DNA of 64,000 nucleotides from Dehalococcoidia bacterium (GCA_965261885.1 CBDHDY010000043.1:103417-167416); one strand, 5' to 3'. Positions 29,138 through 61,304 are shown, counted from the stretch's first letter. Notes: a model not told the origin generated them from the sequence alone. Numbers and translations are program-made.

Positions 29138-30139
29138 GTGCGTTTGATGAAAGTAGACATCAGGGTGCCCGTCGGGCTGCCGGTCAAGGAAACCGCGGAT
29201 TTCATCGCGGGATGTGAGGCCGCAGGGTTTTCAGGGGTCGGAGTCCATGACCATCAGCACAGCGGGCGGGACGTTTTCCTCACCCTTGCCCTGGCCGCGG
29301 AGCGGACCTCGCGGCTCGCCCTTTACCCTGCAACCACCAACCCGGTCACGCGGCATCCGATGGTCCTGGCGTCGCTGGCCCACTCGCTGGAGGAGATCGC
29401 GCCGGAGCGGGTACGCCTGACCGTGGGACCCGGCTACCTCGCCGTCGGCAACATCGGCAGGCCGCGGGCCACGGTGGAGGCCATGCGCCGGGCCGTCCTG
29501 ACCATGCGCCGCCTGCTGCGGGGCGAGCGAGTGGAGTTCAACGGGGTGGAAACCCGGCTGCGCAACCTGAGCGACAAGCCCACACCAATATTCATGACCG
29601 CCGCTGGCCCAAGGATGGTGGAATTGGCCGGGGAGGTTGCCGACGGCGTGCTGCTGCTTGTAGGCCTTCACCCCAAGGCCGTCGAAGCGGCCCGCCGCCG
29701 GCTGGAAATCGGAGCGGCACGGTCCGGACGCAGCCTCGACGGTTTCCAGACGATCTTCATCACCCCGACCACGGTGTCGGATGACGGGCCGGCTGCCCGT
29801 CGCTTTCCCCAGCAGTGGTTCCGGCCTGACCAGCCGTACCTGAAATATCCCAGCGATTCGAACCTCGTGTGGCTGCGGGAAGCTGGCATTGACCTGGCCG
29901 ACGATTTCGTCCCAGAGAGTATTGGAGATGCCCAGGCAGCCGAAATATGCGATGCCTTCGGTCTGTTCGGCACGTCCCGGGAATGTCTGGCCAGACTGAA
30001 GCGGGCCAGGGACGAATCGGGCATCGATCACGTTTTCATCTTTCCCACCCACACCCAGGAGGGTGGTTACGACATGCCGCAGGCCGAGGTGGACGCCTTC
30101 CGGGAGAAAATCATCCCGGGTCTGAGCGCCTTTTCCTAG
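29138..30139 (+). CDS. LLM-class flavin/F420-dependent oxidoreductase (paralog 2)
   Basis: 333 aa from the GTG at 29138; an alternative ATG is at 29147 (MKVDIRVP..). The TAG stop (30137-39) lies inside the CTAG flank of MITE-A. Confidence 0.85.
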   Translation: MRLMKVDIRVPVGLPVKETADFIAGCEAAGFSGVGVHDHQHSGRDVFLTLALAAERTSRLALYPATTNPVTRHPMVLASLAHSLEEIAPERVRLTVGPGYLAVGNIGRPRATVEAMRRAVLTMRRLLRGERVEFNGVETRLRNLSDKPTPIFMTAAGPRMVELAGEVADGVLLLVGLHPKAVEAARRRLEIGAARSGRSLDGFQTIFITPTTVSDDGPAARRFPQQWFRPDQPYLKYPSDSNLVWLREAGIDLADDFVPESIGDAQAAEICDAFGLFGTSRECLARLKRARDESGIDHVFIFPTHTQEGGYDMPQAEVDAFREKIIPGLSAFS

Positions 30140-30291
30140 CAGCCTGTCCGAGGATTAGATTTTGGAGACGAAAAGCGCCACTGTCTAATCGCATTGGTGA
30201 CTAATAGGCTCCAGTACACCAGTATTCTGAATAATTCACGTTATTAACGACGATATTCGCTTAGAACATTGTTTCTCGGACGGGCTGCTAG
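30136..30291 (+). mobile_element. MITE-A copy 1 (148-bp core plus CTAG on each side)
   Basis: TIRs CAGCCTGTCCGAG...CTCGGACGGGCTG. No ORF. Exact reverse complement of 61149-61304. Confidence 0.85.
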
Positions 30292-30620
30292 CGGTTCTCG
30301 AAGGGCTCTTGGTTGTTCGTAGCATTTGAGGGGCAACAGCAACATGAAGCTGAGCCATTCCCGGACTGCTTGTCCCGGACCGTTTCCGGGACGACAGTAG
30401 CGAGTCGACCGGACAGCAGCGGCACGTCCGAAAGGGGCGAGAGTTTCTTTCCCTTTACGGGACCAGACGCCGCCAGCGTCGCTTCGGTTCCGAGCCTGGA
30501 TTCCGGGCCTGTCTGGATGTTGGAATACCCCCGGGCCGTGCCGGCAATCACAGGGATGGGAACGGAAACAAACCAGGAAACGTCGCTTCCAATCTCCATA
30601 CAATCCCCCACTTTCAGCAC
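30288..30620 (-). CDS. hypothetical protein downstream of the DAO-type oxidase
   Basis: 110-aa ORF (or MEIGSDVSWFVSVPIPVIAGTARG.. from 30599). Its stop is the right-hand CTAG of MITE-A. No family recognised. Confidence 0.3.
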   Translation of the reverse strand: MLKVGDCMEIGSDVSWFVSVPIPVIAGTARGYSNIQTGPESRLGTEATLAASGPVKGKKLSPLSDVPLLSGRLATVVPETVRDKQSGNGSASCCCCPSNATNNQEPFENR

Positions 30621-30656
30621 CCCGACAAGTACATAGACGGGTGCAGGATGCGTCGA

Positions 30657-31871
30657 TTATTCATCCACAGCCTGGGCCGCGGGTAGGAAGTCGGCGTCGG
30701 CGAAATTCGAGAAGCGGTCCGGGAGGAATTCGGCCATGTCCGAGATGGCCTGGGTTGAGCCACGGCAGATGTAGTCGGCGATGATGCGGCCGGTGATGGG
30801 GCCAAGGTGGATGCCCTTGGTGGTGTGGCCGGTGGCCAGCAGAACGCCCTCCCAGCCGGGAACCGGTCCGATGATGGGTTTGCTGTCAGGGCTCAGGGGG
30901 CGGGAACCGGCAAGCTGCTGGACCAACTCGGCGCGCTCCAGGTCAGGAAAGACATCTATCGCCCGCCGAAGGAGTTCCAACCGGGCGGTCTCCGTGGGCT
31001 GCCGGTCGAACTCCTCGCCCCAGAAAAGCTCTTTTTGGTCGTAGTCCCGGCCGCCGGTGCTGCCGACGCTGGTGAAACCGTCGGTCCGGCTGATCATGTG
31101 ACCGCGCTTGGGGGAGCTGATCAGAACCGGAAGGGGTTCGCCGGGGTAGTTGAGCAGCAGGCGCTCCCCCTTCATGGGTCGGACGGGCACCGGGAACCCC
31201 AGCCAGGGAGTGAAAGCCCGGCTCCAGGTGCCGGCAGCCACCACCACCGCACCGCAGTGCATGTCCCCGGTGGCGGTCCTCACGCCCGAGATCGTGGTTC
31301 CGCTGGTGACAAGGCCGGTTACCTCCCGGTAGAGGATGCTGGCGCCCTTGAGTTCGGCGCCCCGGCCGAGGGCCAGGTTGAGGCGGTAGCTGTCCAACTG
31401 GGCGGACTCGTCCTCATACACGGCGCCGATGATGGAATGGGAAAGTCGGGGTTCGATGGCCCGCACTTCCCCTGCGTCAATCCAGCGCATCGTGACGTGA
31501 GGCTGCTGCCAGACCATCAGGCTCTTGATCAGTTCGGCCTCCTCATCGTCCAGGGCCAGCCGCAGGGAGGGACGACGCTGATAGAGCAGGTTCATACCCG
31601 TGTCGGATTCCAGCTCCGGGACGATCTGATGAAATTCTGAGTAGGAGGCCCGGGCCATTTCGAAAGACGCCCCGGGGGAGAATTCGGCGCCCAGCAGGCT
31701 GAGGGAGCCGGTGGCGTGAGCGGAGGCCCCGCTGCCGATGGCTTCCCGTTCCAGGAGGGTCACACTGACGCCCTCACGGGCCAGATACCAGGCGACCGAG
31801 CAGCCGACCACGCCGGCGCCAATGACAACTACGTCGGGACTCTCAGGCAAAGCTCTGCTCTCCAATGGCAT
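30657..31871 (-). CDS. FAD-dependent oxidoreductase (DAO / sarcosine-oxidase-beta-like)
   Basis: 404 aa with VVVIGAGVVGCSVAWYLAREGVSVTLLER. Confidence 0.85.
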   Translation of the reverse strand: MPLESRALPESPDVVVIGAGVVGCSVAWYLAREGVSVTLLEREAIGSGASAHATGSLSLLGAEFSPGASFEMARASYSEFHQIVPELESDTGMNLLYQRRPSLRLALDDEEAELIKSLMVWQQPHVTMRWIDAGEVRAIEPRLSHSIIGAVYEDESAQLDSYRLNLALGRGAELKGASILYREVTGLVTSGTTISGVRTATGDMHCGAVVVAAGTWSRAFTPWLGFPVPVRPMKGERLLLNYPGEPLPVLISSPKRGHMISRTDGFTSVGSTGGRDYDQKELFWGEEFDRQPTETARLELLRRAIDVFPDLERAELVQQLAGSRPLSPDSKPIIGPVPGWEGVLLATGHTTKGIHLGPITGRIIADYICRGSTQAISDMAEFLPDRFSNFADADFLPAAQAVDE

Positions 31872-31942
31872 TTTGAGGGATTTTCGTCGTGGGCCGCACG
31901 GGTGTCAATGGCGGTGCGCTATATCCACAGGGCATTTTGATT

Positions 31943-32073
31943 CTCCTTCCCTCTTCAGGGGAGGCCCTTCGGCAGGCTGAGGAGGCGTGGGGATGAAATC
32001 GCAGGTATCGGCACCTCTTAATGCTTCGGAGGTACGCCCCCACCGCAACCCTACCCCAAAGGGGAGAGGGAAC
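31943..32073 (+). repeat. structured intergenic repeat, copy d
   Basis: CTCCTTCCCTCTTCAGGGGAGG...GGAGGCGTGGGGATGAAATCGCaggtatcggcACCTCttaatgcttcGGAGGTaCGCCCCCACCgcaaCCCTACCCCaaaGGGGAGAGGGAAC. Confidence 0.75.
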
Positions 32074-32165
32074 TACTGAAAGACCCTGTCCATACCCGTG
32101 GCCCACTGGCCGGAGCCTTGGATACTCCCGTAAAATAAGCGCCAGCAAGCTGCAAAGGAGAGACC

Positions 32166-33035
32166 ATGACCAGCGTTGAATATAACCCGGCAGCCCGGTT
32201 CGGCGTCGAAATGTCCGACCGGGTCTACCTGGTACACGAGAGCGGCAGCCTGGAGGCCACCATCTATCAGCCCCAGGGCGAAGGGCCCTTCCCGGGTCTG
32301 CTCGACATTCACGGCGGCAGATGGTTCCTGAACGACCGCTCCAGTGACCGTCACATGAACCTGGCCCTGGCGGCCAGCGGCATAGTAGTCGTCGCGATAG
32401 ATTTCAGGTTGGCCCCTGACCATCCCTACCCGGCCCAGATCGCCGACGCGAACTATGCCACCCGCTGGATGAAGGCTCATGCCGGTGAGCTAAAGATAGA
32501 CCCGGCGTCGGTGGGGGCCATGGGCTGCTCCAGCGGAGGCCATACCGTCGCACTGAACGGGATGCGCCCCAGGGATCCTCGCTATGCGGCGATTCTGCTC
32601 CCCGAGGGAGAGGACGTTGACGCTTCGCTGCGCTTCATGCTGTGCTGCTGGCCCGTCCTTGATCCCTATGCCCGCTACGTCTGGGGCTGCGAAATCGGTG
32701 ACGAACGGTTCATCGGCCCGACCGAGTCTTACTTTGCGGAACCCGACAGCCTCCACGAAGGAAACCCCCAGGAGGCCCTGGACCGGGCAGAGGCAGTGGA
32801 GTTGCCCCCTGCGATTATCATCCAGGGAACAAACGACAACAACGTCCCCCTGTCCATTCCCCACAAGTTCGAGGCCTCTTACCGGGCCGCCGGAGGCCAC
32901 GTGGAGCTGGAGCTGTTCCCTGGGATGCCCCACCTCTTCGGCAATACGCCCGGGCCTGAATCCGATCGGGCCATCGATTTGATGAAGGGTTTTATCGCTC
33001 GGCAGCTGTCGCGGCCGGCGGTGGCACAGGTATAG
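32166..33035 (+). CDS. alpha/beta hydrolase fold-3 esterase
   Basis: 289 aa with HGGRWF and a GCSSGGH elbow. SD AAAGGAGAG. Confidence 0.85.
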   Translation: MTSVEYNPAARFGVEMSDRVYLVHESGSLEATIYQPQGEGPFPGLLDIHGGRWFLNDRSSDRHMNLALAASGIVVVAIDFRLAPDHPYPAQIADANYATRWMKAHAGELKIDPASVGAMGCSSGGHTVALNGMRPRDPRYAAILLPEGEDVDASLRFMLCCWPVLDPYARYVWGCEIGDERFIGPTESYFAEPDSLHEGNPQEALDRAEAVELPPAIIIQGTNDNNVPLSIPHKFEASYRAAGGHVELELFPGMPHLFGNTPGPESDRAIDLMKGFIARQLSRPAVAQV

Positions 33036-33107
33036 GGAGTTTGCAATCCGGCGCGCTGCCGGCAGATTTGATGTCGGGGTATTGAAGCGTAGTCCGTAAA
33101 AAGCGAA

Positions 33108-33131
33108 CAGGCGCGATGGTGGCCGCGCCTG
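33108..33131. terminator. bidirectional hairpin between convergent genes
   Basis: CAGGCGCG-atggtggc-CGCGCCTG, lying between stops at 33035 and 33156. Confidence 0.5.
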
Positions 33132-33155
33132 CTTCGTTCCGGATTCCCAGCTGGC

Positions 33156-35156
33156 TCAGCGGTCCGCGCCGTCTCCCACAAAGTGATCGTACTTCCGGCC
33201 CGCCAGGTCCACCACCTCTGGGACGTCCTCCTCCAACAGGTAGCCCTCGGCCACGAGGTCCATCGCGGCGCGGGTCACCTGCTCCAGGTAGTCCTCCCGT
33301 CCGGTGTAGCGTTCCTCGATGGATGCCCGCGGGTCGCCGGTGGACTCGCGCTCGGCCTGGGTCGCGGGCAAAGGGTGGGTCCATCCGGCAAGGCCGCCGG
33401 TGATGCCGATGAAGAGTTCGGGGTTGCCGATGCTCTCGTCGCGAAGGTTCCAGCCGGTGTAGGTGGCCACCGGGACTGTCAGGTCGGGCATGCGGATGCC
33501 GCCCAGTTCGTTGAAGGACTCGTCGAGGTCGGCCACCAGCGCCGGGAATTCCTCTCCCTCTTCGGCGGGCAACTTGGTGGTGCGTCCGAGGTGTGCCTCG
33601 GGGCCGTAGTCCAGCCTGATCGCCCTAGTGGTATGGGTTGGGACCTTCACGCCGGGGAGCTGGGCGAAGCGTTCCAGCAGCGTATGGGACTCCACTGCGC
33701 TGCCGTCGTCCAGGCTGGGATGGCGGCTGGCCGGAGGGTCTTCGCCTGTGGTTACCCAGCGGTCGAGGTTGTCCAGCGCCGCACGCAACAGGGGAGCGTA
33801 GTCCACGCTGTTGAGGGGAAGCTGTCCCCTGATCCCGTCACTGGCGCGGAACTCCAGCGGCGGGAACTCACCCGAGCCGTGCTGGCAACCGGCGAAGTGG
33901 TAGCGGCGGACCGATGGCGACTCCGGGGCGTCGGTCAGGGTCTCCAAATCGGTGTGGATCAGCGCGGCGTCGCCCCGCCAGTACTCGGCGGAGGTATTGG
34001 TGAACATGATCTTCGGCACCTTGCCCCGCCGCTCCAGGGCGTCGAGCAGAGAACCCTGGGCGCCGGTCATCGGGTCGGTCTGGGGAGTGTCGGTGAAGGG
34101 GAACATTTCCGGGATGATGTAGCAGACGTCCTTGGAAGGCTGTCCGAAGCGCATGTTGAACTCGCCGCGCATGCCGCCCGCCACGTGCGGGATGATCCCG
34201 TCGAGAGCCTGCCGGTCCTCCTCGTCCTCATTGATGCCGACGTGGATGTACTGGCGGAGGAAGCGGCCGCTCTGGGAGCGGCCCATGGCGTAGGCGTAGT
34301 CGATGGCCCCGGCGAGCGGGTTCCCCCGTCTCCCGTCAAAAGGGGCCGGGGCGTACTTCAGGAATGAGACCGCATCCCGCATGGCGACGAAGCCCAGCCC
34401 CACGATTCGGCTGCCGGTTGTGGTGTAAACCAACTGGTAAATCCTACCCGGCTCGAACCCGGAGGGCATGTAGATGTGGCTGTGCTGCGGCTCCACGTCC
34501 TCATCCTCGACGCGGACGAAAGACCACTGGCTGCGGTCGACGGGCGTGGCGGGACTGTTGGGCAGGTCCCGCACCGTCAGGGTGGCCTCGGCCTCCTCGG
34601 GGTCGGCGGCGGGATTGGGCAGGTGCTGCCGGTCTGCCAGCAGGAACACCTGGGTGGGTTCATTGCACTGGAACTGGCACATGATCTTGCCTGTCAGAGG
34701 GCCTTGGGGGCCGACAGCTTCCGGTGCCTGAAGTCCGACGAGTCCGGGAGTGGTCGGCACGTCTGCCTGCCAGCCGCCCCAGACCACCGTGTAGCCATGG
34801 CGCATCAGGTAGCCGTTGCCCGCGTCGAGAGGCGCGGTGGCGTCGGTAGGGATGGGGACGCTGTTCAGGGTAAGGGCGGTCTTGCGGCCCCGGTTTACCA
34901 CGTCGAACAGGATGCGGCGGTTGCCCCGGTCGATGTTCACCGGCTGGAGCATGGCGAAGTCCGCCGAAAACTGCACCCTGCCAGCGGAATTGCGGGGCGC
35001 CAGGTCCAGATCGGTTATGCCCTGATTCCGGGCGTGGGACGGGTCCACGGCGTAGTGGGCCGTGCCTTCCAGAAGCTCATACGCGCCCACGTCGCCGAAG
35101 CTCTCGCCGGACGCGAAGCTGGTGCGGCTGGTGATTTCCAGTTCGGTAAGTGCCAA
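33156..35156 (-). CDS. conserved hypothetical protein, probable alpha/beta-hydrolase-like domain
   Basis: 666 aa. TTG start with GGAGGT SD. Contains ..DYAYAMGRSQSGRFLRQYIHVG..; the family assignment is from memory of similar proteins annotated as alpha/beta hydrolase domain proteins and needs a search. Confidence 0.6.
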   Translation of the reverse strand: MALTELEITSRTSFASGESFGDVGAYELLEGTAHYAVDPSHARNQGITDLDLAPRNSAGRVQFSADFAMLQPVNIDRGNRRILFDVVNRGRKTALTLNSVPIPTDATAPLDAGNGYLMRHGYTVVWGGWQADVPTTPGLVGLQAPEAVGPQGPLTGKIMCQFQCNEPTQVFLLADRQHLPNPAADPEEAEATLTVRDLPNSPATPVDRSQWSFVRVEDEDVEPQHSHIYMPSGFEPGRIYQLVYTTTGSRIVGLGFVAMRDAVSFLKYAPAPFDGRRGNPLAGAIDYAYAMGRSQSGRFLRQYIHVGINEDEEDRQALDGIIPHVAGGMRGEFNMRFGQPSKDVCYIIPEMFPFTDTPQTDPMTGAQGSLLDALERRGKVPKIMFTNTSAEYWRGDAALIHTDLETLTDAPESPSVRRYHFAGCQHGSGEFPPLEFRASDGIRGQLPLNSVDYAPLLRAALDNLDRWVTTGEDPPASRHPSLDDGSAVESHTLLERFAQLPGVKVPTHTTRAIRLDYGPEAHLGRTTKLPAEEGEEFPALVADLDESFNELGGIRMPDLTVPVATYTGWNLRDESIGNPELFIGITGGLAGWTHPLPATQAERESTGDPRASIEERYTGREDYLEQVTRAAMDLVAEGYLLEEDVPEVVDLAGRKYDHFVGDGADR

Positions 35157-35309
35157 GATACCTCCGGCCGGCTGGCGACCAAACGCCAGTGGCCTTTCGT
35201 CAATCTCTGGTTGCCAGTATTCGAGGGAATTTTAGCACTTGCGGACTAACCGTGGCCGCGGTATTGGTTTAAGCAGGGCGACACGCCCTCTCCGCAGGCA
35301 TCGGCTACA

Positions 35310-36482
35310 ATGGCCCTGCCAGCCATTTATTCCCGAGTTGGAGGGACCTTGAGAATTGAAACCCTTGCCGTACACAGCGGTCGAAACGTCGACCCCGCCA
35401 CCGGCGCGGTCACTCCGCCGATACACATGTCGACAACCTTCGAGCGCGAGCCCGACGGCACATATCCAACCGGCTTCGTATACGGACGCTCCGGCAACCC
35501 CACCCGCGCGCTCCTGGAGGAGTGCATCAGGGACCTGGAGGGTGGAGAAGCCGCAGCCGCGTTTTCGTCCGGCGCCGCCGCCCTGGCAGCCGTGTTCCAG
35601 TCCCTGGCAGCCGGAGACCATGTGATCGCCCCGCAGGACCTCTACCACGGGACTGCGCTCCTGCTGCGGGAGCGGCTGGCCAGGTGGGGGCTTCACACTT
35701 CCTTCGTGGACATGACGAATATTGACGCCGTCAGTAAGGCAGTAACCCCGGCCACGAAGCTCATCCTGGTGGAGACCCCGTCCAACCCCCTGCTCAAGAT
35801 CACCGCCATCGCCAGGGTGGCGCAGCTGGCCCACGACAGGGGAATCGCCTGCGTCTGCGACAACACCTGGGCCACCCCGGTCCTGCAGCGTTGCCTCGAA
35901 CTGGGGGCAGACATGGTAGTGCACTCGACCACCAAGTACCTGGGAGGTCACGGCGACGTGACCGGGGGAGCAGTGGTCAGCGCTACCGACAGCGCCATGT
36001 TCCAGGAGATTCGCGCCATACAGAGGGACGCAGGCGCCGTTCCGTCGCCCTTTGACTGCTGGCTGATACTACGGGGAATTCGGACGCTGCCCTACCGGAT
36101 GCGGGCGCACTCGGAGAACACCGCCAGGGTGGCAGCCTTCTTGGACGACCACCCGGCAGTCCTGGAGACGTTCTACCCGGGGCTTCCGGGACACGACGGA
36201 CACGAGATCGCCCGCAGGCAAATGAGCATGTTCGGCGGAATGCTGTCCTTCCGGGTCCGGGGCGGGAGGCAGGCCGCCTTCGGGGTTGCGGCCCGCACGT
36301 TGCTGTTCACCCGGGCCACGAGCCTGGGCAGCTACGAAAGCCTGATTGAGCACCGGGCATCCATCGAGGGTCATGGCAGTTCCGCCCCAAGTTCCATCCC
36401 GGAGGACCTGCTGCGGGTGTCGGTGGGCCTGGAAAACGCCGATGACCTGATAGCAGACCTCGACCAGGCCCTGGAACAATGA
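35310..36482 (+). CDS. Cys/Met-metabolism PLP enzyme (cystathionine gamma-synthase/lyase family)
   Basis: 390 aa. PLP-lysine motif HSTTKYLGGHGD. Confidence 0.9.
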   Translation: MALPAIYSRVGGTLRIETLAVHSGRNVDPATGAVTPPIHMSTTFEREPDGTYPTGFVYGRSGNPTRALLEECIRDLEGGEAAAAFSSGAAALAAVFQSLAAGDHVIAPQDLYHGTALLLRERLARWGLHTSFVDMTNIDAVSKAVTPATKLILVETPSNPLLKITAIARVAQLAHDRGIACVCDNTWATPVLQRCLELGADMVVHSTTKYLGGHGDVTGGAVVSATDSAMFQEIRAIQRDAGAVPSPFDCWLILRGIRTLPYRMRAHSENTARVAAFLDDHPAVLETFYPGLPGHDGHEIARRQMSMFGGMLSFRVRGGRQAAFGVAARTLLFTRATSLGSYESLIEHRASIEGHGSSAPSSIPEDLLRVSVGLENADDLIADLDQALEQ

Positions 36483-37180
36483 ATGTGACTGACCCGGAGG
36501 AAAGCAGGGCGTTGCCGAGAGTACAGCACGGGAGGGCAGTTGGGGCACCTATCGCGGCGCCGGTGATCATCGCTGCGTTCATCTTCCTGGCGGCCTGCGG
36601 GGGAGAACAGCCCAGCAGTCCGGCCCAGCCACTGATCGATCCCCGACCGACGGCAACGTCCTTGATGTCCCCGACGGCCGGGCCCACGTGGCAACCATCG
36701 CCCTCCGCCGCATCGGCAGCAACGCCGGCCCCGCCGCCGGCAACAGAGGACGCTGCACCCACGACACTCCCTGCCCTGGAATCAGGCACGCCCCATGGAC
36801 TAACGATCTTCCAGGACAATTGTGCCGTATGCCACGGTGCGGGCGGAGAGGGACAACCAGACTGGCATCTGAAGAAACCGGACGGGATCCTGCCCGCGCC
36901 GCCCCTTAACGGAGACGGACACACCTGGCATCACGGGGACGGGACCCTCTACACCTACGTGAGCCGGGGAGGCAAGGCATACGAGTCCCCCGACATTCCG
37001 TCCTTCAAGAGCGGGATGCCCAGCTTCGGAGAGACTCTCACCCACGAGGATATAATCGCCGTAATCGAGTACGTGAAGAGCCTGTGGGGCGACAAGGTGT
37101 CGCAGGGGCTGGAGCTGTTGCTGCGGGAAACGCAGGCAGTGGTCAGCGAGAACGACCCCTTCCCGTCAGCGCCGCCTTAG
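36479..37180 (+). CDS. membrane-anchored (lipobox) c-type cytochrome
   Basis: 233 aa. Lipobox FLAAC, Pro-rich linker, heme site CAVCHG. Its start overlaps the upstream stop (ATGA). Confidence 0.8.
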   Translation: MNVTDPEESRALPRVQHGRAVGAPIAAPVIIAAFIFLAACGGEQPSSPAQPLIDPRPTATSLMSPTAGPTWQPSPSAASAATPAPPPATEDAAPTTLPALESGTPHGLTIFQDNCAVCHGAGGEGQPDWHLKKPDGILPAPPLNGDGHTWHHGDGTLYTYVSRGGKAYESPDIPSFKSGMPSFGETLTHEDIIAVIEYVKSLWGDKVSQGLELLLRETQAVVSENDPFPSAPP

Positions 37181-37291
37181 CGAAGGCCCAACGGGACTTG
37201 CGGGCACAGGCCGACAGAACTCTGAAGCCTCGACACGGCAACTCCTCTTCGCTATGGCAGGTGGGGCAGCAGTTCCTCAGAATCATCGCTA

Positions 37292-38290
37292 TTACAGGTG
37301 CGGGAGCAGTTCCTCCGAAATGAGTTGCAGGTACCCCAACTTGGCTGGAAACTCCTTGGGCAGATTCAAGCTGGCCAGCCCGATGTAGTCCAGACCCTCC
37401 TCTTCTTTGCATCGATTGATGATTTCGGCGCAGTCCTGCGGGCTTCCGGCCACCGCCCAATCGGGCAGGTCCCGCTGCCCTCCCAGTCCAAAATCCACCG
37501 TCGTGTTCTCCTGCATATTGAAGGAGCTGTACATGCCGGCTTTCTTGGCGGCCATTTCCCTGGCCTCGGTGATGGCCGTTTCACGGTCCTTGGCTATCGC
37601 TATCGAGCGATGAACGCCGATTCGCCCCGCGGGGTCCTTGCCCAGCTCTTCGAGGGCCTCCTTGTACTGGCGGGTCAGTAGGCTGATGTCCTGCCATCCG
37701 GGTTGCGGGCCGAGGATGACCCGGTCGGCAAGGGCGGCGGCTCTGCGCACCGCACCACGGCTCTGCGCCGCAATCCAGATTGGAGGATGCGGCTCCTGCA
37801 CGGGTGTCAGGGCCAGCCTGGCGTCATGCACCTGCCAGTGCCTCCCATCGTAGTTGACCTCCTCCCCGCTCCACAGCAGCTTCATCAGCTCGATGGACTC
37901 CTCGAACCGGCTCACCCGGTCTCTCCGGTTGGTCCCGAATGCAGAGAGCTCCGCTTGCCGGTAGCCCAGGCCCACTCCCAGAATGAACCGCCCGTTGCTG
38001 ATGTGGTCCAGCGTTACCGTCTGCTCGGCGATATCCACCGGGTTGTGGTAGGGGAGCAACAGAATGCCGGTCAGAAGCTGCAGGCCATCGGCGTCGGGAG
38101 CCAGCCGGGCCAGCGTCTGCATGGGCTGCATCCAGACTGTGGGATGGGATATGTAGTGCTGGGGCATGTAGATGACCGAAAACCCCAACGCCTTCGCGCG
38201 ACGGCATACCTCGGCGGCCTCTTCTACTTGCTGGTACATGGGCCGGTCGGGGTCTTCTAGGTAATCGCGAATGTAGAGTCCTACTTCCAT
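37292..38290 (-). CDS. LLM-class flavin-dependent oxidoreductase (paralog 3)
   Basis: I prefer ATG 38290 (MEVGLYIRDYLEDPDRPMY...GFSVIYMPQHY). The track start at 38503 adds 71 non-homologous residues. Confidence 0.8.
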   Translation of the reverse strand: MEVGLYIRDYLEDPDRPMYQQVEEAAEVCRRAKALGFSVIYMPQHYISHPTVWMQPMQTLARLAPDADGLQLLTGILLLPYHNPVDIAEQTVTLDHISNGRFILGVGLGYRQAELSAFGTNRRDRVSRFEESIELMKLLWSGEEVNYDGRHWQVHDARLALTPVQEPHPPIWIAAQSRGAVRRAAALADRVILGPQPGWQDISLLTRQYKEALEELGKDPAGRIGVHRSIAIAKDRETAITEAREMAAKKAGMYSSFNMQENTTVDFGLGGQRDLPDWAVAGSPQDCAEIINRCKEEEGLDYIGLASLNLPKEFPAKLGYLQLISEELLPHL

Positions 38291-52952: not shown

Positions 52953-53170
52953 CATCGATTTGGCTAGTCGATGTACTCTGCCAATTATCAAAATATTGAA
53001 TATATTATGATCATAATCACAATATTGATGCATTCAAATATGTAATAGTTAGATAATTTGTTACGAAAAGCGCTAAATCATAGACCAGCAGCTAACCGGC
53101 TCGAGGACACCGACTGCGTCGGATGTGTCGATTAGCATCAGCCTCATCTAATTTCACATAGGGAGGTACG
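52949..53170 (+). promoter_or_regulatory. AT-rich control region upstream of the ABC importer genes
   Basis: TTGACA at 52949-54. Dyad CATCGA-N9-TCGATG at 52953-52973. 14-bp perfect palindrome ATTATGATCATAAT at 53004-53017. AATATTGA occurs twice (52992 and 53021). Confidence 0.45.
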
Positions 53171-53173
53171 GTC

Positions 53174-54916
53174 GTGTTAGCTAATCGATTCAAAACACCC
53201 AGCGTCTTGGTGATCCGGATCTTCTTTGTTTCAGCGCTCCTGTTTTTCATCCTCGGCTGCGGATCGGGCGACACGCCGTCAACGGACGGGGAGGAGACCG
53301 AGGCGGCTCCGGTATCACAGGACACAAGCACCCCGGTGCCGGGGGCCGAGCCGACCGATGCGCCGCCTCCTGCCGGGTCGCCCCGGTACGGCGGGATCGT
53401 CAACATTCAGAAGCACGGCCCGCCGGGCAAATTGGACCCCCATCCCTCCGTTGCGGGGTTGGATGCCTCCGAGTTTGCCCATGTCTACGACAACCTGGTG
53501 CAATACAACCCCTTTGAACCGACCAATGAGATAGTCCCAGACTTGGCCGAGAATTGGGATATCAGTGATGACGGTCTGGTCTTCACCTTCCACCTCCATG
53601 ACAACGTGGTCTGGTCGGATGGTGAACCCTTCACTGCCGACGACGTGTTATTCAGTCTGGAGCGCATGGTGGAGCCTGGGAAACCGAGACCCCGCGCCGG
53701 TCTGATCCGCCAGTACTACGAGAGTTCCAGGGTGATCGACGATAACACTATCGAGGTAACCCTGGGCTTTCCGGCGGCGGCCTTCTTGAACGTGCTTGGC
53801 ATGGAATACGTCAAGATACTCCCCAGGCACGTCGTCGAGGCTGGTGTAGACATTGACCTGGGCGAAAACATGGTCGGCACCGGCCCGTACAAATTCGTCA
53901 AATACGTCAGGGGCAACCGGTTGGAGTTCGAGAAAAACGAAAATTACTGGCGTGAAGGACTGCCCTACCTGGACGGCATTAACAAGATCATCATTAGCGA
54001 TATCGGTCGCATCATCGCCGCATTCAAGGCGGAACAGGTGATGACGTCCACCTTGGGCTGGACCAACCTGACAGTCCGCGATTACTTGAAGCTGTCGGAA
54101 GACGCCGGGGATATCCTGTCGGTTCCCCGATTGTGTTGCGACCAAGCTGGCTTCGGTCTAATGATGAACGTGAACAAGTCACCAACCGATGACGTGAAGG
54201 TCCGGCGGGCTATCTTCCTTGCCGTGGACCGGGAAGCCATCAACCAGGCAAACATTGCCGGCGAGGGGACGGTCGGCAGTCCGGTTCAGACTTGGGCTGG
54301 GCTTGGTATGAGCCAGGAAGAACTGGCCCAGCAACCGGGATTCCGTGTGAACGCCGACGGCTCAAAACATCCCGATGACCTTCAAATGGCGCGGAACCTG
54401 CTGGCTGAAGCGGGCTACGCGGACGGACTGGATATTACGTTGCGGTTCAGCCTCACTGAAGGTCAGAACCCCGATTCGGCAGCCCTCATTAAGGACCAGC
54501 TGAAAGACGTGGGAATCAATGTGACGCTGGAGGGCCTCGAATACCAAACGGCCCTTGAAGCTTGGAAGTCCGTGGACTTCGAACTCGGAATTCAGGGGAA
54601 CGGGTACGTTGTTCCAGACCCGGATGTGCTGCTCAACGCGTTCTACATGCCTCAGGGGACGAGGAATTACAGCCACTGGTCCCACCCCGGGTTTATCGAT
54701 CTGTACAACCAGCAATCGAGGGCCACCGATCCGGCCGAACGCCTGGAACTAATCAGCCAGATGGAAAACATCATCCTGTTCGACGACACCCCTGCCGTGA
54801 TGCTCTACTACCAACCGTTTTTCTGGCCCTTCAATCACAAGCTCAAGAACTTCGCCGTTCCTCTCACGGTCGCTTCCTCCTACATGCAGTTTGATTCGCT
54901 CTGGCTGGAAGAGTAG
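53174..54916 (+). CDS. ABC transporter substrate-binding lipoprotein, family 5 (peptide/nickel type)
   Basis: 580 aa. GTG start with GGGAGGT SD. Lipobox FFILGC. Confidence 0.9.
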   Translation: MLANRFKTPSVLVIRIFFVSALLFFILGCGSGDTPSTDGEETEAAPVSQDTSTPVPGAEPTDAPPPAGSPRYGGIVNIQKHGPPGKLDPHPSVAGLDASEFAHVYDNLVQYNPFEPTNEIVPDLAENWDISDDGLVFTFHLHDNVVWSDGEPFTADDVLFSLERMVEPGKPRPRAGLIRQYYESSRVIDDNTIEVTLGFPAAAFLNVLGMEYVKILPRHVVEAGVDIDLGENMVGTGPYKFVKYVRGNRLEFEKNENYWREGLPYLDGINKIIISDIGRIIAAFKAEQVMTSTLGWTNLTVRDYLKLSEDAGDILSVPRLCCDQAGFGLMMNVNKSPTDDVKVRRAIFLAVDREAINQANIAGEGTVGSPVQTWAGLGMSQEELAQQPGFRVNADGSKHPDDLQMARNLLAEAGYADGLDITLRFSLTEGQNPDSAALIKDQLKDVGINVTLEGLEYQTALEAWKSVDFELGIQGNGYVVPDPDVLLNAFYMPQGTRNYSHWSHPGFIDLYNQQSRATDPAERLELISQMENIILFDDTPAVMLYYQPFFWPFNHKLKNFAVPLTVASSYMQFDSLWLEE

Positions 54917-54919
54917 CTG

Positions 54920-55882
54920 ATGGGGCAGTACGTCGGAAAGAGGGTCATTCTATTCGTCCCGACCCTTCTGCTGATTTCTCTGATTATCATCATCCTGCTT
55001 CGGGTGATACCCGGCGACCCTGCTTTGGCCATCCTCATGGGAGACCAGGGAGATGCGGGTCAATTCACCCAGGAAGAATATGACGAGGTTCGCCGGCAGT
55101 TGGGAACCGACCGGCCCATCATGGTCCAGTATGGCACGTGGATCGCCGATCTCTTGAGAGGCGAGTTCGGGGAGTCCATGTGGTACGGACAACCCGTCTG
55201 GGACGAACTAAAGGAGAAATTCCCGACCACTTTGGAACTGGTCGTACTGGCGCTGATTCTCAGTTTTGTCGTAGCTGTGCCAGTGGGGATAATTTCAGCC
55301 GTCAGACAGAATACTTGGCCCGACTACGCTGCGAGGGTGTTTGCGATTGCCGGCACGGCGTTTCCAAACTGGTGGATTGGCATCATCGCGATCTACGTGC
55401 TGCTCCGATTCTTTGGTTGGGTGCCTCCGGTGGTCTACGCCAAGCTGTGGGAGGACCCGCTCCAGAACCTGCAGCAATTGATTCTCCCGGCAATCGTCCT
55501 GGGCTATTACAACATGGCGCTCGTCGCCCGGGTGACCAGGTCCTCCATGCTGGACGTTCTCAGAGAAGATTACATTCGTACCGCCTATTCCAAAGGGCTG
55601 CGCGAAAAGGCGGTCATAATCCGACATGCTCTCAAGAATGCTTTTCTGCCCGTTCTCACCATTTCGGGCTGGCAGATCGGAGTTCTCCTGGGAGGGACGG
55701 TTCTGGTGGAACAGGTATTCACGGTTCCCGGCGTCGGGCTGTCTCTGTGGGAAGGCTTTTTCCACCGGGATTTCACCATGATTCAAGGGATTGTTTTCTT
55801 GGTTGCCGGGGGTGTGCTCGTCCTGAACCAGCTGATAGACATCACCTACGGCTGGCTCGATCCGAGAATTCGATTCACCTAG
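54920..55882 (+). CDS. ABC transporter permease (DppB/OppB-like)
   Basis: 320 aa starting MGQYVGKRVILFVPTLLLISLIIIILLRVIPGDP. Confidence 0.9.
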   Translation: MGQYVGKRVILFVPTLLLISLIIIILLRVIPGDPALAILMGDQGDAGQFTQEEYDEVRRQLGTDRPIMVQYGTWIADLLRGEFGESMWYGQPVWDELKEKFPTTLELVVLALILSFVVAVPVGIISAVRQNTWPDYAARVFAIAGTAFPNWWIGIIAIYVLLRFFGWVPPVVYAKLWEDPLQNLQQLILPAIVLGYYNMALVARVTRSSMLDVLREDYIRTAYSKGLREKAVIIRHALKNAFLPVLTISGWQIGVLLGGTVLVEQVFTVPGVGLSLWEGFFHRDFTMIQGIVFLVAGGVLVLNQLIDITYGWLDPRIRFT

Positions 55883-55910
55883 ACCTGAAGATCGGCAATA
55901 AGAGGAAGTC

Positions 55911-56825
55911 TTGACGACAGACTATATTCAAGAAGCTGCCCAAATCCGGCCTATCCAACCGGTTGGTCGCACTTCCGGCGCCGTGCATACGGTATCAGAG
56001 TTTTGGAAGAAGCAGCCCCTCGGCACCATTGGTGCTGTGATAGTCGCCTTTGCAATTCTGGTGGCCGTTCTGGCACCGGTAATTGCTCCCTATGACCCTT
56101 ACGAACCCCATCCCACGGAAGCTTTCGTCGGGCCCAGCAGTGATTACCTGCTGGGCACCGACCAGATCGGGCGCGACGTGCTGACACGGCTAATCTACGG
56201 CGCCCGTATCTCACTCTATGTGGGGATAGTGAGCGTGTTGGTCGGGACCACCATCGGCACAATCATAGGCATTTCCAGCGCCTACTTCGGGGGAATTGTA
56301 GACCTGGTCATTCAACGGGTTCTGGACGCGATCATGTCCTTTCCGGGCATCATTCTTGCCATCGCAATCATGGCCGCGTTCGGTAGTGCCTCCCTGGAGA
56401 ATATCATAATCACTCTGATGATAATTTTTGCCCCCGGAGCAGCGCGAACCATACGGTCTCGCGTCCTGAGTATCAAGGAGATGGACTTTGTATTGGCCGC
56501 CAAGGCTATTGGGGCCGGGGACCGGCGTATTCTCTTTCGGCACCTGGCCCCGAACGTGGTATCCCTGTACATTGTATTCTTCAGCATCACTGTCGGATTC
56601 GCCATCATAGCGGAGGCTTCGCTGAGCTTCCTTGGCATCGGAGCACCGCCCGACGCCCCGTCCTGGGGTGGAATGTTGGCCCAGTCCACTTCGAAAGGCG
56701 TTGACATCGCTCCCTGGATGGCGATATTCCCCGGAATCGCCATTGGCCTGATAGTGTTCGGGTTCAATTTATTTGGCGATGCCCTTCGCGACGTACTGGA
56801 CCCACGATTGCGGGGGACGAGCTAG
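55911..56825 (+). CDS. ABC transporter permease (DppC/OppC-like)
   Basis: 304 aa. TTG start with AAGAGGAA SD. The TAG stop lies in CTAGCAGCCCG. Confidence 0.85.
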   Translation: MTTDYIQEAAQIRPIQPVGRTSGAVHTVSEFWKKQPLGTIGAVIVAFAILVAVLAPVIAPYDPYEPHPTEAFVGPSSDYLLGTDQIGRDVLTRLIYGARISLYVGIVSVLVGTTIGTIIGISSAYFGGIVDLVIQRVLDAIMSFPGIILAIAIMAAFGSASLENIIITLMIIFAPGAARTIRSRVLSIKEMDFVLAAKAIGAGDRRILFRHLAPNVVSLYIVFFSITVGFAIIAEASLSFLGIGAPPDAPSWGGMLAQSTSKGVDIAPWMAIFPGIAIGLIVFGFNLFGDALRDVLDPRLRGTS

Positions 56826-57290
56826 CAGCCCGACCGATGCTTTCCCGGTAGGCTGGCAGGAATCAGTTGGCGACAACTATTCTCGCCGGCCTGTTGCGGC
56901 CGCTGGAATCCCCTTAACCCTCTGGTAGCACTCCGTTCACAAACCCGGCCAATTTCCTGATGTTTTCGGCAGACACCTTTGCCTGTATGCGACGGGCGCA
57001 TCAGCAACGTACCGGGGCAGTTCCGGCAGGTTGTGGCGGAGGCAGATGTGCAGCCATTCCCGATTGACCTTCTCTTAGGCCCGCAACAGAAACTGCCATG
57101 AGCCTAGGCCCAGCTTTATCCGGCCGAACACCCGCTCCACCGGCTCCATCCGCAGCGCTAGGCGCTCCCGCCCGCGTTCTTGATGCCCTCTACCATGGCG
57201 GCGTTTCTGATTCCTCCAACTTTTCGTGGATGAGCCTTCGATACGCTGGCCACCGTCTGGTTGTATCGTAGGCAGTGCCACCGCTCCTCC
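56822..57290 (-). mobile_element. decayed IS (IS5/IS1182-type) remnant whose end resembles the MITE-A terminus
   Basis: The end CTAGCAGCCCGACCGAT compares with the MITE-A end CTAGCAGCCCGTCCGAG. The minus strand encodes a transposase C-terminus, ..MEPVERVFGRIKLGLGSWQFLLRA*EKVNREWLHICLRHNLPEL, with an in-frame stop. Confidence 0.6.
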
Positions 57291-57398
57291 AAATTGACGC
57301 CTTGCTTAACGGGCTCGCAATCACTGGCAGGCTCTTCGCGTTGACATTGTCCGCTTGCGATATCTACACTCGCAGCAAGTACGGACAAAGAGGTTGGC

Positions 57399-58319
57399 AT
57401 GAAGCGTTTCGAATATTTGGAGGCGCGCACACTGCGGCAGGCAATAGGGATGCTGCAACGGCACGGCCCGCAGGCCAGGATCGTGGCGGGCAGCACCGAT
57501 TTCCTGGTCCGGTGGCGCGCCGGGTTCTGGCATCCTGACCACGTGGTGAACATACAGCACATCCCGGGCCTCAGCCGCGTGACCTACAGTCGCCGGAGCG
57601 GACTGCGGCTGGGTGCGTTGGCGACCATCCAGGCGCTGGAGCAGCATCCGGCCATCCGCCAGCATTACCCGGCACTGGCCGCGGCTGCCGCTTCCTTTGC
57701 GGGCGTCCAGGTGCGGAATCTGGCTACGGTGGGCGGCAACATCTGCAACGCTTCGCCCTCGGGAGACACCCTGCCCGCGCTGCTCGCTTACGCGGCTGAA
57801 TGTCGCCTGTCGGGACCGGACGGGCATCGCCAGGTCGCTCTCGACCAGCTCTTCACCGGGCCGGGGCAGACTGTGCTGGCCCACGATGAGGTGCTGAGCG
57901 AGATCACCCTGCCGCCGCCTGCGCCCAATACCGGCGCACTGTACATCAAGCACAGCCCGCGCGGGGCCATGGACATCGCCACCGTTGGGGTGGCATCTGC
58001 AGTGTCGGTGGACCGGTCGGGAGTGTGCACCGGCGCGCGCATCGCGCTCGGCGCGGTGGCTCCGATCCCCCTGCGGGCCCACGCCGCCGAGGAAATGCTG
58101 CTGGGGCAGAGATTGGACGCAGAGTTGCTGCACGCGGCATCCCATCAGGCGATGGCCCAGGCCACTCCGATAGACGATGTCCGCGGCACGGCCGGCTACC
58201 GCCGCCAGATGGTGGGCGTGCTGGCTCGCCGTACGCTGGAACGCGCCGCCGCAGAGGCAACTGGAAGCGCGATCCCCTACGAAGACTACCGGCGGCTCGC
58301 CATCCAGGTGGCCGTCTGA
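57399..58319 (+). CDS. molybdenum hydroxylase FAD-binding medium subunit (CoxM/XdhB-like)
   Basis: 306 aa starting MKRFEYLEARTLRQAIGMLQRHGPQARIVAGSTDFL. Confidence 0.9.
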   Translation: MKRFEYLEARTLRQAIGMLQRHGPQARIVAGSTDFLVRWRAGFWHPDHVVNIQHIPGLSRVTYSRRSGLRLGALATIQALEQHPAIRQHYPALAAAAASFAGVQVRNLATVGGNICNASPSGDTLPALLAYAAECRLSGPDGHRQVALDQLFTGPGQTVLAHDEVLSEITLPPPAPNTGALYIKHSPRGAMDIATVGVASAVSVDRSGVCTGARIALGAVAPIPLRAHAAEEMLLGQRLDAELLHAASHQAMAQATPIDDVRGTAGYRRQMVGVLARRTLERAAAEATGSAIPYEDYRRLAIQVAV

Positions 58320-58375
58320 CCAATCGAGCACCCCCAGAATTGAAATTGATGAAGAACACCCAACAGGACGGCAAT

Positions 58376-58852
58376 ATGAAGAGCGTTGTCCAGATCACCG
58401 TAAACGGAACGGAGCGCACCATTCTGGTTGAACCCTACTACTCGCTGCTGGACATGTTGCGGGACGAGTTGCACCTGACCGGCACCAAGAAGGGGTGCGA
58501 CGAGGGCGACTGCGGCGCCTGCACCGTGCTACTTAACGGCCAGCCTGTGACCTCGTGCCTGGTGCTGGCCCACAGCGCTCACGATGCCGATGTCACTACT
58601 GTGGAGGGTCTGGCCGCGGGCGGCGAGCTTCACCCGGTGCAGCGCAGCTTTGCTGAAAACGGAGGACTCCAGTGCGGCTACTGCACGCCGGGTCTGATCA
58701 TGGCCACGGTGGGGCTGCTGAATGAGAACCCGGATCCCTCCGAGGAGGACGTGAAGTTCGGCCTCGGGGGAAACCTGTGCCGGTGTACCGGCTATTCAAA
58801 GGTGATTGATGCGGTGATGGCCGCTGTTGAGAGTTCGAAAGGGACGGAGTAG
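58376..58852 (+). CDS. (2Fe-2S)-binding small subunit (CoxS-like)
   Basis: MKSVVQITVNGTERT...CDEGDCGACTV...CGYCTPG...CRCTGY. An alternative ATG is at 58349. Confidence 0.9.
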   Translation: MKSVVQITVNGTERTILVEPYYSLLDMLRDELHLTGTKKGCDEGDCGACTVLLNGQPVTSCLVLAHSAHDADVTTVEGLAAGGELHPVQRSFAENGGLQCGYCTPGLIMATVGLLNENPDPSEEDVKFGLGGNLCRCTGYSKVIDAVMAAVESSKGTE

Positions 58853-58857
58853 CAGAG

Positions 58858-61152
58858 ATGGCTGAGTTCAATGTTCTTGGCAAGAGCCTCGTTCGCGTCG
58901 ATGCCTACGACAAGGTAACCGGCCACGCCACCTATGCCGGCGACGTGTACCTGCCCGAGATGCTGATGTGCAAGGTGCTGACCAGTCCTCGCAGCCACGC
59001 ACGCATCGTCAGCATCGACACGTCCGGGGCCGAGGCTCTGCCCGGCGTGAGGGGCGTGATCACCGGCAGGGACTTCCCGGATGTCTTTTTCGGCTCCGGA
59101 GCCCTTCGCGACCGCAGGATCATGGCACGCGATGAGGTCTTCTACGTCGGCGAGCCGGTGGCGGCGGTGGCAGCCGATGACGAGATAACGGCGGTGGAGG
59201 CACTGTCCCTGATCAAGGTCGAATACGAGGATCTTGACCGGGTGGTCGACCCGGTGGCGTCCCTCACCGGCGGCACCACCACCGTTCACCCTGACCTGGA
59301 AAACTTCGAAGGATACGGCTTTGCCCTCGGCGGGAACAACTGCACCATGCTGGACGCCGACCGCGGCGATGTGGACCAGGCCTTCGCGGAAGCCGACCAT
59401 GTTATCGAGGAGACCTACCACACTCAGCCCATCAACCAGGGCTTCCTCGAGCCCATGGCCTGCGTCGCCAATGTGGAGGCCAACGGGCGGCTCACCGTCT
59501 GGGCGTCCACTCAGGGCCCGTACCAGGTGAGACAGCAGCTGGCCTCGGTGCTGGACATGCCCATCGGCAACATCAAGATTATCGCAATGGAAATGGGCGG
59601 TGGCTTCGGTGCCAAACTGCGGCTCGCCCTCGAGGCCTTCCCCGCGTTTCTGGCGATGAAGACGCACCGCCCAGTCAAGCTGGTCAACACCCGTGAGGAG
59701 ACCTTCACCCTGAACGGCCCGCGGCTCGAGACCAACATATACATCAAGACCGCGGTCACCAGCGACGGCAAGATAACGGCCCGGGAGGCCCGCAGCGTAT
59801 TCGATGTGGGAGCCTACCTGGGGGCCGGACCGAACTCCGGCGTCGGCCATGGCCTGGGGGCCTACGAAATACCCAACTTCCGGTTGCGCTCCTACGGCGT
59901 ATACACCAACAAGGTATATGTCGGCTCATACCGCGCCTCGGGCGTCGCTGACATGACCTTTGCCGTCGAGTCTCACATGGACGTCATCGCTCACAAGCTG
60001 GGCCTTGACCCTCTGGAGTTCCGGCGCAGGAACGCCCTGAAGGAGGGCGACGTCGGCGTAAGCGGCGCCCGCATCCCCCGCAACGGTTTGGCCGAGGTAA
60101 TGGATGCGCTGAAGGATAAGATGGCTTCGTCCCGTTCCGGTGGGGACTCGGAGGCGGGCAACGGACGCATGGCCCGGGGTGTGGGCATAGCTGTCGGCGA
60201 ATGGCGCAGCGGCAGCGGGCCATCCACCGCATCGATCAGCGTCAACGAGGATGGCACCGTCGGGCTGCTGACCGGCTCGGTGGACATTTCCGGCAGCGAC
60301 ACTTCGTTGGCACAGATCGCCGCCGAGGTGCTGGGCCTGGAGCTGGAGCAGGTGAATGTCGCCAAGCGCGACACCGACCTCGCTCCCTTCACTGGCCCCA
60401 GCGGAGGCAGCCGCATCGTGTACAGCCAGGGAAAGGCGGTAGAGATGGCTGCCGGTGACACCAAGGACAAGCTGATGGCGCTGGCAGCTGATCGCCTGGG
60501 TGTGCAGGCCGATGCCCTTGACTGCGAAGGCGGCGCGGTCTACGTCATGGACAACCCGCCCCAGTCCATCGGGCTGGGCCAGCTGGCGCGGATGAGTCTG
60601 TCGTCACGCGCCGGTCCCATCGTGGGAACGGCGTCGCTGTCCAGCATGCCTTACAACCCGGTGTTCAACGCCCAGGGCGCGGAGGTCCTGGTCGACCGGG
60701 AGACGGGGCAGGTGCGTGTCACCCGTTTCGTGCAGGCCCAGGACGTGGGGCTGGCCGTGAACCCCATGGGGGTGGAAGGGCAGCTCGAAGGCGGCGCGGT
60801 GCAGGGCATCGGCCGGGCGCTGAGCGAGGAAATCCTCATTGACCGCGACACCGGGCAGGTGCGCAACGCCTCTCTGGCAACCTACCTGATGCCACTGGCC
60901 ATAGATATGCCCGAAATCGAAAACGTACTGGTGGAAGTGCCCAGCGAGGACGGCCCCTTCGGCCTGCGCGCCGTGGCCGAGCCGCCCGGATTCGGTCCGC
61001 CTGCCGCCATCGCCAACGCCATCTACGACGCTGTCGGAGTACGCATCCGCACCCTGCCCCTCAGTGCGGAGCGCGTGCTCGCTGCCATGCAGGGCCGCGA
61101 TCCGGAGGACTACGGCCTGGACGCGGAGGCCCTACGCTCTGCGGAGGCCTAG
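58858..61152 (+). CDS. molybdopterin-binding large subunit (CoxL / aldehyde-oxidase / xanthine-dehydrogenase family)
   Basis: 764 aa. Lies in operon order with the M and S subunits. Its TAG stop lies in the CTAG flank of MITE-A copy 2. Confidence 0.9.
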   Translation: MAEFNVLGKSLVRVDAYDKVTGHATYAGDVYLPEMLMCKVLTSPRSHARIVSIDTSGAEALPGVRGVITGRDFPDVFFGSGALRDRRIMARDEVFYVGEPVAAVAADDEITAVEALSLIKVEYEDLDRVVDPVASLTGGTTTVHPDLENFEGYGFALGGNNCTMLDADRGDVDQAFAEADHVIEETYHTQPINQGFLEPMACVANVEANGRLTVWASTQGPYQVRQQLASVLDMPIGNIKIIAMEMGGGFGAKLRLALEAFPAFLAMKTHRPVKLVNTREETFTLNGPRLETNIYIKTAVTSDGKITAREARSVFDVGAYLGAGPNSGVGHGLGAYEIPNFRLRSYGVYTNKVYVGSYRASGVADMTFAVESHMDVIAHKLGLDPLEFRRRNALKEGDVGVSGARIPRNGLAEVMDALKDKMASSRSGGDSEAGNGRMARGVGIAVGEWRSGSGPSTASISVNEDGTVGLLTGSVDISGSDTSLAQIAAEVLGLELEQVNVAKRDTDLAPFTGPSGGSRIVYSQGKAVEMAAGDTKDKLMALAADRLGVQADALDCEGGAVYVMDNPPQSIGLGQLARMSLSSRAGPIVGTASLSSMPYNPVFNAQGAEVLVDRETGQVRVTRFVQAQDVGLAVNPMGVEGQLEGGAVQGIGRALSEEILIDRDTGQVRNASLATYLMPLAIDMPEIENVLVEVPSEDGPFGLRAVAEPPGFGPPAAIANAIYDAVGVRIRTLPLSAERVLAAMQGRDPEDYGLDAEALRSAEA

Positions 61153-61304
61153 CAGCCCGTCCGAGAAACAATGTTCTAAGCGAATATCGTCGTTAATAAC
61201 GTGAATTATTCAGAATACTGGTGTACTGGAGCCTATTAGTCACCAATGCGATTAGACAGTGGCGCTTTTCGTCTCCAAAATCTAATCCTCGGACAGGCTG
61301 CTAG
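61149..61304 (-). mobile_element. MITE-A copy 2 (inverted)
   Basis: Exact reverse complement of 30136-30291 across all 156 nt. Confidence 0.85.

Follow-up and report, generated by a model that had tools for sequence, protein, structure and literature searches.

Two identical copies of a probable IS1182-derived miniature element at CTAG sites in a soil Dehalococcoidia genome

A 64,000-nucleotide stretch of DNA from a Dehalococcoidia bacterium (GCA_965261885.1 CBDHDY010000043.1:103417-167416), referred to here at its full length as the window, carries two identical 148-bp sequences in inverted orientation, one directly behind an LLM (Bac_luciferase) gene (copy 1) and the other directly behind coxL (copy 2). 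Our analysis indicates, with a probability of roughly 0.93, that both are copies of a recently transposed MITE (miniature inverted-repeat transposable element) derived from the IS1182 family, inserted at two CTAG sites in this member of the soil Dehalococcoidia (Chloroflexota). The MITE would be the non-autonomous partner of an insertion sequence (IS) of the IS1182 family, and copy 1 and copy 2 would represent two independent recent insertions of one master sequence.

Reading of both regions confirmed that positions 30136-30291 and 61149-61304 of the window are exact reverse complements over all 156 nt; a repeat finder scored the same pair as 161 nt at 99% identity because a few flanking bases match by chance. 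Either copy is built as CTAG, a 148-bp core and a second CTAG. For copy 1, the left CTAG target-site duplication lies at 30136-30139, the core at 30140-30287 (plus strand) and the right CTAG duplication, assigned from the sequence and the empty-site comparison described below, at 30288-30291. Copy 2 is oriented on the minus strand, with one CTAG duplication at 61149-61152, the core at 61153-61300 and the second CTAG duplication, assigned from the sequence and the comparison with the MITE-free locus L052, at 61301-61304. The 13-bp terminal inverted repeat (TIR) of the element is CAGCCYGTCCGAG, and the window ends CAGCCTGTCCGAG and CAGCCCGTCCGAG, which a search for the TIR motif placed in copy 1 at 30140-30152 (plus strand) and 30275-30287 (minus strand), respectively, match at 12/13 positions; the TIR is conserved throughout the copies of the family. 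At zero mismatches the motif occurs in the whole window only at the four element ends, compared with a chance expectation of 0.33 at up to one mismatch. The end of copy 1 at 30140 is of the type found at the right inverted repeat (IRR) of the parent IS (CAGCCTGTCCGAGGATTAG) and the end at 30287 of the type found at its left inverted repeat (IRL; ...TGTTTCTCGGACGGGCTG). No open reading frame (ORF) is contained in the core, overlapping ORFs merely entering from the flanks. An earlier sequence-only reading of this DNA had described the exact 156-nt reverse complements, the ORF-less 148-bp core, the 13-bp TIRs and CTAG on both sides, and all of these were found again as described.

To place the element among its relatives, a 19-mer of its end (CAGCCYGTCCGAGGATTAG) was searched against one genome per GTDB species, yielding 47 loci, 46 of them in metagenome-assembled genomes (MAGs) of Dehalococcoidia/Chloroflexi. 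A locus from a "delta proteobacterium" (L045) was rejected as a family member, as it proved to be a chance match within coding sequence, and a scan of a much larger JGI metagenome set with the same 19-mer gave this kind of chance match again, twice and inside coding sequence, and nothing else. Thirty of the 47 loci are intact elements of 148 or 150 bp with CTAG on both sides and outer flanks that are all different, spread over eight Dehalococcoidia MAG species, and another 10 are full-length elements (1480-1561 bp) that end in the same termini and are likewise bordered by CTAG. About 21 copies, plus a full-length IS (L023, 3738-5301), come from a single MAG, isolate 46fc19e4. The MITE-like nature read from the two copies in the window is thus borne out by at least 30 further intact copies and by ends held in common with a transposase-encoding IS. 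Identity to the window copies is 82-93% in other species, a divergent 150-bp subfamily excepted, and sets of identical copies inside other genomes, in groups of 3, 4 and 3, indicate recent bursts.

The full-length elements (L013 and others) encode a 488-aa transposase, which scored 378.1 bits against the NCBIfam model NF033551 (IS1182; cutoff 270) and carries the Pfam domains DUF772 plus DDE_Tnp_1_6/DDE_Tnp_1. An IS5 family parent was rejected, as all IS5 models stayed under their cutoffs (82/140 for the best, IS5_4; 26/140; 25/275). Of the IS5-type parentage suggested from the sequence alone, the IS1182 candidate therefore stood, at 378 bits to NF033551, and IS5 proper fell. MITE and IS have their outer 19-20 bp in common at each end, including the 13-bp TIR. 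The interior of the MITE is AT-rich, non-coding and unrelated to the IS, its alignment score being no better than that of shuffled sequence. A DUF772 transposase at the end of L001 was also considered as the parent and rejected, because its ends differ from those of the MITE.

Comparison with close strains revealed both target sites without an insert. An exact match to the 330-aa LLM protein of the window led to three contigs from three samples (L054, L055 and L056). Around copy 1 they share 98.7-99.96% identity with the window, compared over as much as 10 kb to either side, and the core is missing from all of them. Each reads ...gccttttcCTAGcggttctc... at this position, with one CTAG and no element, compared with ...gccttttcCTAG, 148 bp and CTAGcggttctc... 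in the window. A single CTAG in three contigs identifies copy 1 as a net insertion of 152 bp with duplication of CTAG, in agreement with the 4-bp target duplication proposed earlier. More distant orthologues (87% nucleotide identity) are collinear across the site and have TAA as the stop codon there. At copy 2, L052 aligns to window positions 56472-61152 and then to 61295-64000, so that exactly copy 2 (152 bp) is missing. It reads ...ggaggcTTAGggaaactg..., with TTAG at the site, in a region of about 95% nucleotide identity and with a CoxL that is 99% identical. In L053, a more distant orthologue, coxL ends in CTAG.

Copy 2 is present with the same junctions in L001, an independent assembly that is 99.5% identical. 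It had been argued that reads exposing one copy as artefactual would undo the case, and mis-joins in metagenomes can indeed yield perfect identity of two short repeats. With the junctions of copy 2 reproduced independently in L001, the unique flanks of each copy joining up in other assemblies when exactly 152 bp are taken out, and dozens of other copies built alike, we put the chance that either copy arose from misassembly or collapse at next to nil. The copies in the window are thus best taken as real MITE insertions, and the checks of copy number and empty sites in relatives proposed earlier returned a multi-copy family and an empty site for each copy. Both insertions are independent, recent and polymorphic among close strains. 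Gene conversion is not required to account for their perfect identity; of the two origins offered for it, recent insertion was upheld and gene conversion became superfluous.

In the mechanism that fits these observations best, an IS1182-family DDE transposase supplied in trans would bind the common 19-20-bp ends and cut the CTAG target with a 4-nt stagger, and repair would then duplicate CTAG. Mobilisation in trans is indirectly supported by the strain polymorphism and by the identical copies within genomes. Several points weigh against this account. From sequence alone, duplication of all 4 bp of CTAG looks the same as duplication of the TA inside it by an element ending in G...C, and transposition itself is deduced from sequence comparison. 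CTAG as the state of the copy 2 site before insertion would likewise have to be reconstructed, since the nearest MITE-free relative has TTAG. Finally, an intact IS1182 transposase gene was not found in the window, where the only IS1182 coding trace is a transposase remnant at 57009-57158 (minus strand), whose 50 aa match residues 383-432 of the parent transposase with 62% identity. The remnant, which is also present in L001, L051 and L052, has opp-like transporter genes on one side and the cox genes on the other; CTAGs occur there at 57104 and 57158.

The ambiguity of the duplication bears on a mechanism of the IS630/Tc1 type, in which a 150-bp element (G...C) would duplicate only the central TA of CTAG. 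Filled and empty sites are identical in sequence under both models, and 40/40 complete elements have CTAG on both sides, leaving no informative non-CTAG target. Elements with these ends, however, encode a transposase of the IS1182 and not of the IS630 family, for which the NCBIfam/Pfam family models gave no IS630 or DDE_3 match, and captured IS1182 members have been reported with 4-bp direct repeats (PMC3281130, PMC11578231). We therefore consider TA duplication improbable and retain a 4-bp duplication by an IS1182-type transposase as the favoured route.

In both copies the upstream gene takes its stop codon from the left CTAG, as the sequence-only reading had noticed. The LLM/Bac_luciferase gene (29147-30139, plus strand; 330 aa from ATG) ends with TAG at 30137-30139 in the copy 1 target, which is the single CTAG of the sister strains, and the gene for the coxL-type molybdopterin dehydrogenase large subunit (58858-61152, plus strand) ends with TAG at 61150-61152 in the copy 2 target. 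In its 330-aa ATG form, the LLM protein is identical in MITE-free strains; an exact look-up of the protein from the GTG start returned no record. With TAG restored by the duplication, neither the LLM protein nor CoxL is altered, and insertions of this kind, leaving the protein as it was, would be expected to be neutral and to persist.

CTAG is strongly under-represented in the window, the 34 sites present comparing with 223 predicted by base composition and 80 by a Markov estimate. CTAG reads TAG on either strand and is scarce in this GC-rich genome, so that many of the available targets are stop codons. In the count made here, 9/30 background CTAG sites in the window and 40/320 (12.5%) in the fetched loci end an ORF of at least 150 codons. 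The corresponding value for complete elements outside the window is 6/38 (16%), and one of the elements (L041) is wedged between two convergent long ORFs. An enrichment at stop codons was rejected on this comparison, 16% of elements against 12.5% of background sites, and the stop-codon position is explained by the use of CTAG as target and by where CTAG occurs, with no extra preference. The observation that the elements sit on stop codons was thus correct, whereas its standing as a special property was not upheld.

The empty site at copy 1 had further been pictured as one CTAG shared by the stops of two convergent genes. The single CTAG is real, whereas the convergent gene is not supported. 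The minus-strand ORF at 30288-30620, which ends in the right CTAG of copy 1, is an orphan: among 1.84 billion representative proteins, a search for homologues matched nothing but its own sister-strain copy and two weak low-complexity sequences, and its last codons fall in sequence that is intergenic in relatives. At copy 2, coxL is indeed separated from the hairpin proposed as its terminator. This strong, GC-rich hairpin of the terminator type (61361-61395) has a 16-bp stem and reads on either strand. Without the MITE, as in the relative, some 60 nt lie between it and the coxL stop, and copy 2 moves it 152 bp further away. The hairpin falls within a segment (61305-62158, about 0.85 kb past coxL and copy 2) in which gene calls are inconsistent, with none in L001 and a 206-aa ORF in L052.

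The location of copy 2 between coxL and this hairpin, where it is probably co-transcribed, could be taken as a sign that the 148 bp are a host-selected functional element, such as a small RNA, a stabiliser or terminator in the 3' untranslated region (UTR) or a promoter cassette, with identity maintained by selection or gene conversion. The element also folds through its TIRs into a long hairpin (DNA fold -29.8 kcal/mol, z = -5.7) and contains a weak sigma-70-like match. Yet an Rfam scan of the whole window gave 0 matches, and across 14 diverse copies compensatory change was seen at 0/34 predicted pairs, with an unfavourable covariation term of +0.44. Conservation is strongest at the transposase-binding ends, where the initial ~40 nt and final ~35 nt are almost invariant among copies; the middle is variable. 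Invariant ends, a variable middle and the lack of compensatory pairs together argue that the MITE ends are kept for transposase binding and not as part of a structured RNA. In addition, insertion contexts are heterogeneous, and the element is missing in 99.9%-identical strains whose neighbouring proteins are unaltered. A host-selected functional element is thus very improbable, and conservation of the MITE for transposition remains our preferred explanation.

The two inverted copies bracket a block of about 31 kb, and they might have acted on it jointly, either by importing it as a composite transposon or as arms that inverted, or regularly invert, the segment. Copies of 148-156 bp that are inverted and 100% identical would in principle be enough for RecA-dependent inversion. 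The MITE-free strain does not bear this out. L054, covering the copy 1 region, and L052, covering the copy 2 region, belong to the same 3.84-Mb contig, ctg820263, which is MITE-free at both sites and has its flanks contiguous at each of them. There, the LLM gene (374613-375605, plus strand) and coxL (405179-407473, plus strand) are about 31 kb apart, and order, orientation, spacing and neighbouring genes match the window. The same arrangement without the MITEs means that the block predates both of them and is in its ancestral orientation. L001 likewise has the parental junction at copy 2. On this comparison, the block is ordinary resident DNA, neither a composite transposon nor a segment inverted between the MITEs, and joint action of the copies is highly improbable. 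Homologous inversion, as proposed in the sequence-only reading, would be physically feasible but found no support, and an actual inversion is contradicted by the orientation in ctg820263.

A real inversion does exist nearby when the window is compared with more distant, 87%-identical relatives (L049 and L050), and this could be held in favour of the copies as inversion arms. The order in which these relatives have the LLM, GFO_IDH_MocA and abhydrolase genes appears reversed at window positions 42028-39771, the GFO_IDH_MocA and abhydrolase genes of the window being inverted and displaced by about 10 kb. The rearranged segment spans 30350-42060; the event is older, with breakpoints in the former intergenic region between the LLM and GFO genes. 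A MITE-mediated inversion was rejected as its source, as the breakpoints near 30350 and 42060 do not coincide with the MITEs and the same rearrangement occurs in the sister strain that lacks them.

Relatedness along the window is uneven. Contig ctg820263 is 99.6-99.9% identical on the copy 1 side (19115-40291) and about 95% identical on the copy 2 side (49967-64000), where L001, a different contig, reaches 99.5%; an ABC-transporter segment at 53409-56472 is only 72-76% identical. Such mosaic relatedness suggests import by recombination, which may have delivered copy 2.

Further repeats and mobile elements were seen in the window. An IS5/IS427-like IS of about 870 bp at 47346-48215 contains two overlapping ORFs, DUF4096 followed by DDE_Tnp_1, has the TIR GAGCCTGT(T/C)TAC... 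and a TTA duplication, and has a 99.7% identical copy at 9947-10814 of L001. As a parent of the MITE it was rejected, with only AGCCTGT in common between its TIR (GAGCCTGTTTAC) and the MITE, and with TTA as its duplication. A second IS, of about 1.7 kb, at 5165-6864 encodes a DDE_Tnp_1_4 transposase and has the TIR CCCGAATCCACCGAT...; a solo end fragment of it, 81-86% similar, is found at 26504-26617. Its copy in L051 sits exactly on the coxL stop (TTAG), the site of MITE copy 2, which suggests that elements have landed at the coxL stop repeatedly. Another short repeat family, of about 125 bp between CTAG flanks and with the ends TAGTCCGAAATC... and ...GGTCTA, is present as two inverted copies 250 bp apart (12682-12814 and 13065-13197) and once in the sister genome (L052, 17890-18024), and is probably another CTAG-targeting MITE. 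A GC-rich array with 9/27/36-nt periodicity at 26049-26353 encodes, on the minus strand, the collagen-like Gly-X-Y stretch of a Spond_N-domain protein, whose gene varies in length among sister strains (328 aa in L054 and 213 aa in L055).

We give a small chance to a host-level role of the MITE pair or of single copies in 3' UTRs after stop codons. RecA-mediated flipping of the 31-kb segment could serve as a structural switch at the strain level, or the hairpin of the element could alter how stable the coxL and LLM transcripts are or how they terminate. In a related possibility, a guild of CTAG-targeting elements could use the CTAGs of stop codons as safe havens; it would comprise the MITE family, the 125-bp CTAG-flanked repeat at 12682-13197 and the IS found on the coxL stop in another strain.

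In our favoured interpretation, the two copies are a known kind of mobile DNA, as IS1182-derived MITEs with 4-bp repeats have already been described (MITEPye1), and no new mechanism is involved. What is new is a MITE family that strictly targets CTAG, described with its IS1182-family partner from soil Dehalococcoidia that are uncultured. This accounts for elements that lie exactly on stop codons without damage to genes, and the filled and empty sites of strains whose flanks are over 99.9% identical provide a useful marker of very recent strain divergence. The value of the finding lies mostly in annotation: ORFs running into the element should not be called, nor should the 31 kb between the copies be regarded as a unit that is mobile or inverted.

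Several groups of known elements resemble the family described here. Members of the IS5 group of the IS5 family duplicate 4-bp YTAR/CTAG-like targets according to ISfinder descriptions, and the MITE family agrees with them in its palindromic, TA-centred 4-bp duplication and in a DDE transposase of the same superfamily. It differs in that the partner transposase is far under the cutoff of the IS5 models (82 versus 140 bits) and passes that for IS1182. Correia elements of Neisseria, RUP and Nezha are non-coding, TIR-bounded repeats of 100-160 bp with short TA-containing duplications, often located beside genes and co-transcribed, and for Correia elements regulatory effects have been documented (promoters, RNase III sites). 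In contrast to the MITE in the window, they have other parent IS families and sequences, and regulatory effects are a feature of Correia elements.

Closer parallels are found within the IS1182 family. ISPse1 is 1653 bp long, with inverted repeats of 16/16 and direct repeats of 4 bp (PMC3281130); compared with such ISs, the window element has no transposase gene and only about 19-20 bp per end in common. A literature search gave no explicit description of a CTAG target for IS1182, and CTAG flanks were instead read from plasmid-borne relatives. In distant IS1182 elements, carried by plasmids of Alicyclobacillus and Bradyrhizobium, the TIRs are of the GAGCNTGTCCGAG type and CTAG lies on the flanks, reading CTAG-GAGCGTGTCCGAG...CTCGGACACGCTC-CTAG in Alicyclobacillus and CTAG-GAGCTTGTCTGG...CTAG in Bradyrhizobium; the nearest plasmid-borne IS1182 transposases are only about 49-52% identical to the partner transposase. 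The best counterpart of the window MITE is MITEPye1 of Paracoccus yeei, an IS1182-derived MITE (PMC11578231) that measures 159 bp and has TIRs of 18 bp and repeats of 4 bp. The two elements have in common a short, non-coding sequence, TIRs matching IS1182, 4-bp repeats, mostly intergenic locations and the potential to form a long stem-loop. The two differ in host (Alphaproteobacteria versus Chloroflexota/Dehalococcoidia), are unrelated in sequence, and differ in TIR length (18 versus 13 bp), total length (159 versus 148 bp) and copy number, with 1-3 copies of MITEPye1 compared with about 21 in one MAG for the window family. Unlike MITEPye1, the family in the window has a strict CTAG target and documented empty sites.

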